DNA from: Escherichia coli
GTDB lineage: Bacteria; Pseudomonadota; Gammaproteobacteria; Enterobacterales; Enterobacteriaceae
Length of the DNA: 64,000 nucleotides
Assembly: GCF_016026235.1 (NCBI RefSeq)
Contig: NZ_CP065613.1
Direction: 5' to 3' (one strand)
Shown here: piece by piece, positions 24,153-25,117 of the stretch
Layout of the letters: every line of letters begins with the position of its first letter
Numbering within the stretch: position 1 is the first letter of the stretch
Position numbers and translations under genes: made by a program
The notes under the pieces: model-generated
What the model was told of the DNA's origin: nothing
Seen by the model: the letters and a program-made list of their open reading frames with translations, nothing else
Database searches by the model: none

Positions 24153-24518
24153 ATGGACTGGTATCTGAAAGTACTAAAAAATTATGTCGGTTTCCGGGGT
24201 CGTGCGCGGCGCAAAGAGTACTGGATGTTTATTCTGGTCAACATCATCTTTACGTTCGTGCTGGGGCTGCTGGATAAAATGTTAGGCTGGCAACGCGCTG
24301 GTGGCGAAGGCATCCTGACGACAATCTACGGTATTCTGGTGTTTTTACCGTGGTGGGCAGTTCAGTTCCGCCGCCTGCACGACACCGACCGCTCGGCGTG
24401 GTGGGCACTGCTATTCTTAATCCCGTTTATCGGCTGGCTTATTATCATCGTCTTTAACTGCCAGGCGGGTACGCCAGGCGAAAACCGCTTTGGACCTGAT
24501 CCAAAACTGGAACCTTAA
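24153..24518 (+). CDS. yhaH: DUF805 inner membrane protein YhaH
   Basis: ORF 24132..24518; start at MDWYLKVLKNYVGF. Confidence 0.8.
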   Translation: MDWYLKVLKNYVGFRGRARRKEYWMFILVNIIFTFVLGLLDKMLGWQRAGGEGILTTIYGILVFLPWWAVQFRRLHDTDRSAWWALLFLIPFIGWLIIIVFNCQAGTPGENRFGPDPKLEP

Positions 24519-24529
24519 AACAAATCTGC

Positions 24530-24560
24530 TCGCCGGATGTCTGACTCATCCGGCTTTTAT
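24530..24560 (+). terminator. rho-independent terminator after yhaH
   Basis: gccggatg-tctgact-catccggc hairpin followed by TTTTAT. Confidence 0.6.
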
Positions 24561-24760
24561 CATTATGTTGATGAATGAATAATTTACTAATGTTTATTTA
24601 AAATATTTCAATGTCGTTATATAAATTACCTATAAAAAAATAACCATGTATTTATCTTAAATATCAAAACCTTTATAACATCCGAAAAAGAAAGATACGA
24701 ATAGCATTTACACAATACCCGGAATAGACTTTCGTCACTTTTAATTAAAGGGATGTTTTT

Positions 24761-25117
24761 ATGCAGTGGTATTTAGCCGTATTAAAAAATTATGTTGGTT
24801 TCTCTGGTCGCGCACGTCGTAAAGAGTACTGGATGTTTACTCTGATTAACGCCATCGTCGGCGCTATTATCAATGTCATTCAATTGATTTTAGGTCTGGA
24901 GCTTCCATATCTGTCTATGCTTTATTTGCTGGCAACCTTCCTTCCCGTCCTTGCGCTTGCTATCCGTCGCTTACACGATACCGACCGTTCAGGTGCCTGG
25001 GCCTTGCTCTTTTTTGTTCCGTTTATTGGCTGGCTCGTGCTTCTGGTTTTTTTCTGCACAGAAGGTACTTCTGGCAGCAATCGTTACGGAAACGATCCGA
25101 AGTTTGGTTCAAATTAA
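24761..25117 (+). CDS. yhaI: DUF805 inner membrane protein YhaI (paralog of YhaH)
   Basis: 118-aa ORF sharing the LKNYVGF.GRARRKEYWMF...RRLHDTDRS motifs with yhaH. Confidence 0.8.
   Translation: MQWYLAVLKNYVGFSGRARRKEYWMFTLINAIVGAIINVIQLILGLELPYLSMLYLLATFLPVLALAIRRLHDTDRSGAWALLFFVPFIGWLVLLVFFCTEGTSGSNRYGNDPKFGSN

Follow-up and report, generated by a model that had tools for sequence, protein, structure and literature searches.

Organisation, distribution and expression signals of the DUF805 genes yhaH and yhaI in Escherichia coli

The closest described counterpart of the locus studied here is that of E. coli K-12, in which yhaH (b3103) and yhaI (b3104) are each annotated as 'putative inner membrane protein' with the Pfam family PF05656 (DUF805). 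The window, i.e., the whole 64-kb stretch of E. coli DNA that was analysed, carries the same locus as K-12, with equal gene lengths, the shared order yqjF-yqjG-yhaH-yhaI-(yhaJ)-yhaK-yhaL and a spacer of 241-242 bp between the two genes. The stretch formed by the spacer and yhaI (649 bp in the window strain, 648 bp in K-12) is 99.5% identical to that of the K-12 MG1655 derivative MG1655_TMP32XR2, and there is no substantive difference otherwise. Annotations of practically all E. coli genomes include the locus, and its arrangement is known and ordinary. In Salmonella, the ortholog of yhaH (STM3234, 86% amino acid identity) has the same flanking genes, but yhaI is missing and the convergent yhaJ lies 38 bp 3' of yhaH with one hairpin in between. 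The Salmonella gene is a direct target of the sRNA SdsR, and its transcription start at -43 was the basis of the SdsR reporter fusion (PMC5137417). A YhaH-GFP fusion was localised to the membrane (PMC3225971).

Both genes already have their place in the 'y-ome' catalogue and separate terminators are ordinary; the observation from which this study started adds nothing to the annotation by itself. What goes beyond the annotation is the status of yhaI as an optional and variable addition outside the conserved core. As discussed below, we consider it likely that the locus consists of two monocistronic DUF805 genes, a resident yhaH and an accessory yhaI cassette, with yhaI being silent but inducible. 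The observed parts of this model are the anatomy, the paralogy, the pattern of presence and absence, the promoter and terminator kept in relatives, and the expression differences between the two genes in published work.

The two genes and their products

The two reading frames have the same coordinates as yhaH and yhaI in the RefSeq annotation:

24153-24518, plus strand: yhaH, ORF with ATG start, 121 aa, DUF805 inner-membrane protein
24761-25117, plus strand: yhaI, ORF, 118 aa, DUF805 protein of the YhaI-type clade, with the Shine-Dalgarno-like AAAGGGA at 24747-24753

Both proteins match PF05656 end to end, YhaH with 120.9 bits (E 4.5e-35, model positions 1-111/111) and YhaI with 111.3 bits (E 4.4e-32, model positions 1-110/111) at a gathering cut-off of 25.7 bits, and both genes lie on the same strand, in agreement with the original prediction of tandem DUF805 paralogs. 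Pairwise alignment, which had been proposed as a check with low identity as the adverse outcome, gave 66/118 identical residues (56%) and 69% positives at an E value of 9e-48 (BLASTP). According to the hydropathy analysis, each protein contains three hydrophobic stretches, which in YhaH span residues 22-46, 54-72 and 80-107. The DUF805 motifs GRxRRxEYW and RRLHDxxxSGWW are found in the core of all 41 aligned homologs. In the form GRARRKEYWMF and RRLHDTDRS they are common to YhaH and YhaI as had been described, whereas the N-terminal string YLKVLKNYVGF, also attributed to both, belongs to YhaH and is one residue off in YhaI (YLAVLKNYVGF).

A search for solved structures of DUF805 proteins found none and returned only chance matches to cytochrome b (E 0.13), which are probably the source of the old 'putative cytochrome' label. 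Membership of yhaH and yhaI in a defence system was ruled out, as PADLOC gave no match at the locus.

Terminators, promoters and probable separate transcription

The expression signals identified around the two genes are as follows:

24077-24105, plus strand: best sigma-70-like promoter candidate of yhaH (-35 TTTACT, 17-nt spacer, -10 TATTCT; PWM score 9.9)
24532-24564, plus strand: intrinsic-terminator-like hairpin of yhaH, GCCGGATG(tctgact)CATCCGGC followed by TTTTATCATT (terminator scan and folding)
24565-24760, plus strand: AT-rich leader/regulatory spacer of yhaI, about 23.5% GC
24701-24730, plus strand: degenerate counterpart of the yhaI-type proximal promoter (ATAGCA, 18 nt, TAGACT; alignment and PWM)
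25128-25150, plus strand: terminator hairpin of yhaI, GGGGCGA(tatt)TCGCCCC followed by TTTTT, within the 50-bp gap to the convergent yhaJ

The terminator scan placed an 8-bp stem with 6 GC pairs at 24532-24554, followed by TTTTATCATT, and a 7-bp stem with 6 GC pairs at 25128-25145, followed by TTTTTATTAA. Folding energies are -15.0 kcal/mol (z -4.3) for the yhaH hairpin and -16.3 kcal/mol (z -4.8) for the yhaI hairpin, and in neither case was any of 200 shuffled sequences equally stable. Both consist of a GC-rich stem-loop and a T/U-run 3' of the stop codon, which is the layout of an intrinsic (Rho-independent) terminator. The claim that each gene has its own GC hairpin with T-run is therefore upheld, and the positions given for them, 24530-24560 and 25126-25152, were correct within a few bases. 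The efficiency of both predicted terminators is presumed from their sequence. The yhaH terminator is kept at 46 of 47 positions between two E. coli haplotypes. A hairpin is found 3' of yhaH in every genus examined, with a sequence that differs between genera, and in fact every DUF805 gene at this site has a hairpin 3' of itself in all genera examined; 3' of the yhaI-type genes of Citrobacter amalonaticus, C. rodentium and Intestinirhabdus alba a GGGGCAA...TTGCCCC hairpin is kept. The E. coli Term-seq supplements list no mapped 3' end for yhaH, behind which low expression may lie, and their entries for yhaI are Rho-dependent regions only (PMC7815308).

The yhaH-yhaI spacer (24519-24760), described in the original prediction as a very AT-rich stretch of 240 bp, measures 242 bp with 27.7% GC and falls to 23.5% GC past the terminator; 200-bp windows with at most 27% GC make up 0.66% of those in the 64-kb window. 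E. coli haplotypes agree to 99% in the yhaI leader, whose Citrobacter counterparts are 217-223 bp long with 30% GC. An Rfam scan of 23700-25500 (E <=1) found no RNA family in the spacer and gave only sub-threshold matches in the REP region 5' of yhaH, to isrD (24.2 bits, cut-off 37) and naRNA4 (21.7 bits, cut-off 59.5); no repeats were found 5' of yhaH at seed 9. A search for the CpxR box GTAAA-N5-GTAAA with one mismatch gave two sites here, the first on the minus strand of the spacer (24583-24597) and the second within yhaI. The window as a whole contains 8 such boxes as opposed to 3.8 expected, a number reached in 2 of 100 shuffles, and the boxes are not significant alone.

For yhaH, the candidate promoter would start transcription near 24112 and leave a 5' UTR of about 41 nt. 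This position is supported by its agreement with the Salmonella start at -43, and the exact E. coli start sites of both yhaH and yhaI are to be read as predictions. A strict scan for the sigma-70 consensus across 23800-25400 returned 0 sites as opposed to 3.6 expected, and together with a PWM scan it revealed no convincing sigma-70 promoter 5' of E. coli yhaI. Several looser PWM sites with a score of 10 in the spacer were discarded as uninformative, with 31 such sites on the plus strand of the window. In C. amalonaticus, C. rodentium and I. alba, the alignment revealed a strong extended -10 promoter (ATGACC, 17 nt, TGnTATATT) at a conserved position about 30 nt 5' of the yhaI-type ATG, with the Citrobacter sequence ATGACC-17-TGATATATT. 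PWM scores for this proximal promoter are 11.9-13.0 in the three relatives, as opposed to less than 7.3 at the E. coli position, and by this comparison the E. coli yhaI promoter appears decayed relative to those of Citrobacter and Intestinirhabdus.

Published expression data separate the two genes further. Ler, which antagonises H-NS, activates yhaI 36-fold but not yhaH (PMC3891560), and in a published CpxR study yhaI was upregulated 3.2-fold on the array and 40.3-fold by qRT-PCR, as opposed to 1.9-fold on the array for yhaH. The authors of that study grouped yhaH, yhaI and yhaJ as a 'putative operon', the co-induction being modest (1.9-, 3.2- and 2.0-fold). In K-12, a Rho-dependent termination region was mapped 85 nt into yhaI (PMC7815308 supplementary file 2).

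An operon would be expected to have a short gap without terminator or promoter and genes that are regulated together. Between yhaH and yhaI, in contrast, there is a 242-bp gap with a terminator-like hairpin and, in relatives, a promoter, and the two genes do not respond alike to Ler and CpxR. We regard it as improbable that the pair nevertheless forms a two-gene operon, in which the hairpin would act as a partial attenuator or RNA-stability element and yhaI would be expressed mainly by read-through. The shared strand, the poor match to sigma-70 promoters 5' of E. coli yhaI, the joint rise of both genes on the CpxR array with its authors' operon assignment, and the U-tract after the yhaH hairpin, which is interrupted (UUUUAUCAUU), are all consistent with such an operon. 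However, the gap holds a hairpin of -15 kcal/mol with a T-run, the 36-fold effect of Ler concerns yhaI alone, and the 40-fold response of yhaI in qRT-PCR is far above the array value of yhaH. Moreover, the relatives have a dedicated promoter, including I. alba, which has no upstream DUF805 gene, and in strain ZH142 an IS1 stands in place of yhaH while yhaI and its leader are kept. That yhaH and yhaI are independently transcribed units and not an operon, as originally predicted, is well supported by the terminator, the promoter kept in relatives and the differential expression. Since no convincing promoter was found 5' of E. coli yhaI, some of its expression could arise from read-through of the yhaH terminator.

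Distribution and origin of the yhaI cassette

Alignments with genomes that contain only yhaH defined the breakpoints of a cassette:

24514-25167, plus strand: yhaI cassette, 654 bp, comprising the last 5 nt of yhaH, the yhaH terminator, the AT-rich leader, yhaI and the yhaI terminator

In the yhaH-only genomes, 41 nt with a different hairpin are found instead. The contiguous junction of yhaH, this hairpin and yhaJ is present in 1012 of 5426 E. coli genomes (18.7%), a count made with the common yhaH-only allele, as the junction of strain 700462 matched only 21 genomes because of SNPs. The spacer and yhaI are present in 4408/5426 genomes and yhaH, at an identity of at least 95%, in 5419/5426. 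Outside E. coli, yhaH also stands alone in four of the further enterobacterial lineages that were sampled, namely Salmonella, Klebsiella, Enterobacter and cryptic Escherichia (Escherichia sp. E2562). Orthologs of yhaH are 73-88% identical across 13 genera. With regard to C. rodentium, YhaI is 63% identical to its ortholog as opposed to 87% for YhaH and 96% for YhaJ. The GC3 of yhaI is 0.454, compared with 0.615 for yhaH and 0.55-0.62 for the neighbouring genes, and in every genome checked the yhaI-type gene has a GC3 below that of its neighbours. From these data, yhaH looks like a conserved core gene and yhaI like an accessory cassette that has been acquired or lost here. A fifth of E. coli lack yhaI, so that the two genes are better regarded neither as redundant duplicates nor as an operon.

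Patchy presence, clean boundaries and atypical composition are the features of a xenogeneic cassette, and all three were found for yhaI. Signs of mobility or of a donor are missing at the site itself, as neither end (24514, 25167) shows a mobility gene or a terminal repeat; some E. coli carry a related YhaI-type copy on an island that encodes an integrase. A deletion of yhaI by recombination between the 3' ends of the paralogs was ruled out, because the hairpin of the yhaH-only genomes is common to E. coli and the cryptic Escherichia clade and absent from two-gene genomes. Ancient local duplication and lateral insertion are both candidate origins of the cassette.

According to the original prediction, the two genes stem from an old duplication. 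As far as age is concerned this fits well, since dS between yhaH and yhaI is saturated and dN is 0.40, so that they are very old paralogs; an in-situ tandem origin is less well supported, given the weak sister support described below and the existence of yhaH-only lineages. A neighbour-joining tree was constructed from 41 DUF805 proteins and 122 columns, whose deep branches are beyond its resolution. In this tree, the YhaH-type sequences clustered with a bootstrap support of 99.5, the YhaI-type sequences with 72 and both as sister groups with 13.5, and the union of the two takes in a Firmicute sequence. The identity of YhaI to YhaH (56%) is no higher than that to DUF805 proteins from Firmicutes and Actinobacteria (52-59%). 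Judged from these sequence relationships, yhaH and yhaI are ancient paralogs from two distinct DUF805 clades. Adjacency, the same orientation and full-length homology are properties of tandem duplicates, whereas a clade in which the two are each other's closest relatives was not recovered in this low-resolution tree. Because of the separate clades and the yhaH-only genomes, in-situ tandem duplication is not demonstrated; it appears only partly supported, and a very old duplication would be compatible with the low resolution of the tree.

In its explicit form, the duplication scenario derives yhaI from an ancient tandem copy of yhaH, made in situ in an ancestor early in enterobacterial history, with later divergence of the two copies and repeated loss of yhaI, in Salmonella, Klebsiella, Enterobacter and part of Escherichia. 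We consider this possible but doubtful. The adjacency of the two genes on the same strand within one family agrees with it, as does the identical two-gene layout in E. coli and Citrobacter, with a yhaI-yhaJ gap whose length, 50 bp, is the same in E. coli and the two Citrobacter species. Depending on the genus, the site contains 1, 2 or 4 tandem DUF805 genes, and I. alba has only the YhaI-type gene left, a pattern of birth and death. The variable copy number, and the coincidence that would be needed for a foreign DUF805 gene to arrive precisely next to a resident one, both speak for local duplication and loss rather than lateral insertion. However, the monophyly of YhaH and YhaI has a bootstrap support of only 13.5%, and Firmicute DUF805 proteins resemble YhaI as closely as YhaH does. 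The yhaH-only genomes contain no remnant of yhaI and their non-homologous 41-nt junction is shared with cryptic Escherichia. The scenario needs a minimum of four or five clean losses, each independent of the others. In addition, the low GC3 of yhaI-type genes everywhere and the YhaI-type copy on a mobile island speak against it.

Allelic variation, phage link and comparison with known systems

Within E. coli, yhaI occurs in two allele classes, which differ in one segment:

24896-25068, plus strand: dimorphic mosaic segment of yhaI, codons 46-103, covering TM2, the RRLHDTDRS loop and TM3

The classes are about 70% identical in this segment and near-identical in the flanks, with 53 differences in the 173 bp as opposed to 0 in the first 135 bp of yhaI. 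The window (K-12) type was counted in 2076 genomes and the other type in 2289, with 2 intermediates. In the segment, dS is 1.52 and dN/dS 0.14, compared with a dS of 0.026 elsewhere; for yhaI, a dN/dS of 0.18 was obtained. Gene conversion from yhaH was ruled out as the source, because both alleles are 49-54% identical to yhaH there, and no second copy of the segment was found in E. coli genomes. This two-allele mosaic is the only mildly novel item of the locus.

The absence of yhaI from 19% of E. coli, the degenerate proximal promoter, Rho termination inside the gene (PMC7815308), IS insertions or deletions at the locus and frameshifted YhaI variants at the T7 run 25047-25053 in public assemblies might suggest that yhaI is a decaying, non-functional remnant, a pseudogene in the making whose variability is neutral erosion. 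We consider this very improbable. The dN/dS ratio remains at 0.14-0.19 even within the highly diverged segment, the motifs GRARRKEYW and RRLHDTDRSG are fully kept across all yhaI alleles and genera, and the gene is strongly inducible by Ler and CpxR. The frame is intact (T7) in about 2010 of about 2077 full-length carriers of the K-12 type, and among complete genomes T6 occurs in only about 2 and T8 in about 7. The rarity of T6 and T8 also rules out phase variation at this run and leaves rare mutations or sequencing errors. Selection analysis and the intact gene in more than 99% of carriers both indicate that yhaI is functional and under purifying selection.

In the model considered likely here, yhaH would be the conserved resident of the yqjG-yhaJ interval in Enterobacteriaceae, transcribed from its own promoter with a start about 41-43 nt upstream and ending at the intrinsic terminator 24532-24564. 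A separate, faster-evolving DUF805 lineage would be represented by yhaI, carried in the 654-bp accessory cassette between yhaH and the convergent yhaJ, which would supply its own AT-rich leader, a terminator and a promoter that is degenerate in E. coli. In this species, yhaI is probably near-silent, owing to the AT-rich leader and weak promoter, with silencing of the H-NS type and intragenic Rho termination, and would be switched on independently of yhaH by Ler in EHEC or by the Cpx envelope-stress regulator. Putative binding and silencing by H-NS at the leader are suggested indirectly by its AT-richness, the 36-fold effect of Ler and the internal Rho region. The combination of AT-rich leader, decayed promoter, inducibility by Ler and Cpx, and internal Rho termination is the probable reason why yhaI is normally silent.

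Two groups of known systems are suitable for comparison. Inner-membrane host factors for phage genome entry include ManYZ for lambda and NfrB for N4. YhaH resembles them as an inner-membrane protein that is required for infection by two phages: a yhaH mutant resists PhiWec188 and PhiWec190 and becomes sensitive again when complemented (bioRxiv 10.1101/2024.11.29.626071; PMC12695924). This requirement is the only functional lead for these DUF805 proteins and concerns YhaH only, as nothing ties yhaI to phage. In E. coli, yhaI shows a three-state polymorphism (absent in about 19%, K-12-type in about 39% and alternative in about 42%), in which the alleles differ only by the 173-bp TM2-loop-TM3 block, diverged (dS 1.5) as in a between-genus comparison. 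The intermediate frequencies, the block that is diverged yet under purifying selection, and the need of some phages for YhaH could be read as balancing or frequency-dependent selection, exerted by phages or by further agents exploiting DUF805 inner-membrane proteins, a reading we regard as unlikely. If true, it would provide a small, tractable case of an inner-membrane entry factor with population-level diversification, and the mosaic in the transmembrane core of YhaI, together with the host-factor report for YhaH, suggests that DUF805 variants are worth testing for phage susceptibility.

The second group comprises the H-NS-silenced, Ler-antagonised xenogeneic genes, such as the LEE operons and other Ler/H-NS targets. 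Like these, yhaI is AT-rich upstream (about 24% GC), has a low GC3, is accessory, responds 36-fold to Ler and has a Rho-dependent region inside the gene. Unlike them, it forms a one-gene cassette without flanking mobility genes, which occupies the same site in Citrobacter and is therefore not a recent island.

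Anatomy of the yhaH-yhaI locus

Gene order at the locus is yqjF-yqjG-yhaH-yhaI-(yhaJ, opposite strand)-yhaK-yhaL. By megablast, the stretch is present in 5422 of the 5426 complete E. coli genomes, whose annotations name the ORFs yhaH and yhaI and call each a “DUF805 domain-containing protein”. The observation of two DUF805 paralogs is confirmed as real and correctly located, and it was already known. The following features were obtained:

24153-24518, same strand as yhaI: yhaH, 121 aa from its ATG (ORF call)
24532-24554: terminator-like hairpin with T-run behind yhaH, -15.0 kcal/mol (terminator scan and folding)
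24761-25117, same strand as yhaH: yhaI, 118 aa (ORF call)
25128-25145: terminator-like hairpin with T-run behind yhaI, -16.3 kcal/mol (terminator scan and folding)

A low pairwise identity would have spoken against the paralogy claimed in the original prediction, but the formal alignment bears it out, with 56% identity and 69% positives over 118 residues (BLASTP, E 9e-48). Both proteins match the Pfam model PF05656 over its full length, and each contains three hydrophobic stretches and the conserved charged motifs. The motifs quoted for the pair are present, except that the N-terminus of YhaI reads YLAVLKNYVGF and not YLKVLKNYVGF. The spacer, described as very AT-rich and about 240 bp long, measures 242 bp with 28% GC, falling to 23.5% GC past the yhaH terminator, and its AT-richness is matched by only 0.66% of the 200-bp windows in the 64 kb. 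The composition scan also found 200-bp windows of at most 30% GC at 38961-41321 and 61381-61701. Between yqjG and yhaH there are REP-like palindromes (23860-24012, e.g., gatgcggcatgaacgccttatc and ggccagataagcgtagcgcatctggc), where Rfam returned isrD and naRNA4 below threshold and nothing else; the y-ome paper describes yhaH as “surrounded by repeat sites”.

Terminator scan and folding agree on a separate hairpin with T-run behind each gene, and for both hairpins none of 200 shuffles was as stable. The hairpin of the yhaI-type terminator, GGGGCAA...TTGCCCC, is retained across genera, and E. coli and the two Citrobacter species have the same distance from yhaI to yhaJ, exactly 50 bp. The published mapped-terminus data list no yhaH 3' end (PMC7815308), and the activity of the yhaH terminator in vivo is therefore a prediction.

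Promoters and regulation

Two promoter positions were considered:

24077-24105: candidate yhaH promoter, TTTACT, 17 nt, TATTCT (promoter scan; plausible)
24701-24730: E. coli counterpart of the yhaI-type promoter of relatives, ATAGCA, 18 nt, TAGACT (alignment with relatives)

The predicted yhaH start, approximately 41 nt 5' of the ATG, agrees with the start at -43 that the SdsR study (PMC5137417) used for its reporter of Salmonella yhaH. Promoter prediction in the spacer, proposed as a check on independent regulation, gave no convincing promoter before E. coli yhaI. A strong extended -10 promoter of the yhaI-type gene is kept in position in Citrobacter amalonaticus, C. rodentium and Intestinirhabdus alba (ATGACC/ATGATT/ATGACA, 17 nt, TGnTATATT/TGnTATGTT; scores 11.9-13.0), ending about 34 nt before the ATG. 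Since I. alba has no DUF805 gene upstream at all, this promoter must serve the yhaI-type gene alone. In the E. coli counterpart, by comparison with these relatives, the TG and two positions of the -10 element are lost.

On overproduction of CpxR, yhaI rose 3.2-fold in array data and 40.3-fold in qRT-PCR, and yhaH 1.9-fold (PMC2731931), which agrees with separate control of the two genes. The yhaI leader contains a near-consensus candidate CpxR box with one mismatch (24583-24597, - strand, ATAAACATTAGTAAA); in the window, 8 CpxR-box matches were found against 3.8 expected, which is not a significant enrichment. Intragenic Rho-dependent termination is typical of AT-rich, poorly expressed genes. 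Such a region was mapped 85 nt into yhaI (MG1655 3252996, +; window ~24846, +), and a second one in K-12 lies antisense to yhaI (MG1655 3253150, -; window ~25000, -), which suggests that yhaJ transcripts run into yhaI (PMC7815308, supplementary file 2). Taken together, the yhaH terminator, the yhaI-type promoter of the relatives and the discordant published expression support the original view of yhaH and yhaI as independent transcription units.

Distribution and origin of yhaI

Orthologs of YhaH occur across the Enterobacteriaceae (73-88% identity). The interval between yqjG and yhaJ contains yhaH alone in Salmonella, Klebsiella pneumoniae, Enterobacter and the cryptic-clade Escherichia sp. 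E2562, and in such relatives yhaH is followed by 33-41 bp with one hairpin and then by the convergent yhaJ. Spacer and yhaI were found in 4408 of the 5426 complete E. coli genomes, and a contiguous yhaH-hairpin-yhaJ junction in 1012. One haplotype has 41 nt cleanly substituted for the 654 bp of the other (24514-25167), which comprise the terminator of yhaH, the AT-rich leader, and yhaI with its own terminator. The 41-nt junction carries a different hairpin, AAGCACCTTgtaaAAGGTGCTT, and is shared with Escherichia sp. E2562 (locus L091); the haplotype with yhaH alone is therefore old and did not arise by a recent deletion between the paralogs. In single strains, IS1 has replaced both genes or yhaH only, and ISVsa5 is inserted at the yhaH 3' end (loci L082 1788-2485, L085 2641-3338 and L100 1170-2378).

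YhaI-type proteins (60-66% identity) are restricted to some Citrobacter, Superficieibacter, Intestinirhabdus and an island in a few E. coli. A third E. coli DUF805 gene (P0236; loci L093 and L094 3001-3360), located on this island and away from the yhaH-yhaI site, encodes 119 aa, is 64% identical to YhaI with a GC3 of 0.33, and lies beside Wzz, CaiF/GrlA-family regulators and a phage-type integrase.

The pair had been explained by an old tandem duplication. That the paralogs are old is certain, given a nucleotide identity of 52-65% along the gene, a saturated dS and a dN of 0.40. The tandem duplication, however, is at best unproven, given the yhaH-only genomes and a neighbour-joining tree of 41 DUF805 proteins in which the YhaH-type clade has a bootstrap support of 99.5%, the YhaI-type clade 72% and their union 13.5%. 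YhaI shares 56% of its residues with YhaH and 52-59% with DUF805 proteins of Exiguobacterium, Bacillus, Lysobacter and Streptomyces. DUF805 copy number has a hot spot in the interval between yqjG and yhaJ (L096 1769-3831; L095 3001-3360; L097 2412-3360), with two genes in C. rodentium and C. amalonaticus and one, of the YhaH type, in Salmonella, Klebsiella and Enterobacter. Evidence in the opposite direction comes from the four tandem DUF805 genes of Superficieibacter and the YhaI-type gene alone in I. alba, a pattern that resembles local birth and death. In the C. amalonaticus draft assembly (L002 2297-3285 and 4411-5308), both yqjG and yhaJ are broken into pairs of overlapping ORFs, probably through homopolymer sequencing errors and not as real pseudogenes.

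In all genomes examined, yhaI-type genes have a GC3 below that of the adjacent genes (E. coli 0.45 versus 0.55-0.62). They also evolve faster than yhaH and yhaJ: between E. coli and C. rodentium, amino acid identity is 63% for YhaI, 87% for YhaH and 96% for YhaJ, with dN/dS values of 0.18, 0.04 and 0.02, respectively. The better description is that of yhaI as an accessory cassette from a separate DUF805 lineage beside the conserved core gene yhaH; as to its ultimate origin, proteins of 120 residues are compatible with a very ancient local duplicate as well as with a transfer.

Alleles of yhaI and functional context

The two main E. coli alleles of yhaI (2289 and 2076 genomes, with 2 intermediate) match completely over the first 135 bp of the gene, and a single site distinguishes them in its final 49 bp. 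In the block 24896-25068, which covers TM2, loop and TM3, 53 of 173 positions differ (~70% nucleotide identity, against 98-100% in the flanks), with a dS of 1.52 and a dN/dS of 0.14. Sequence comparison ruled out yhaH as donor of this block, and no second copy was found in E. coli genomes. At a T7 run inside yhaI (25047-25053), public assemblies contain frameshifted protein variants (T6, 139/130 aa; T8, 131 aa), which are rare in complete genomes, with approximately 2 (T6) and 7 (T8) among ~2077 complete genomes with this allele.

No solved structure was found for YhaH or YhaI, and PADLOC gave no match. PHROGs contains a phage “moron” membrane protein family with DUF805. A YhaH-GFP fusion is located at the membrane in a YidC-dependent manner (PMC3225971). 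A yhaH mutant is resistant to the phages PhiWec188 and PhiWec190 and can be complemented, which is the sole functional lead. The presence or absence of yhaI and its two-allele mosaic are a modest curiosity that might be tied to phage biology.
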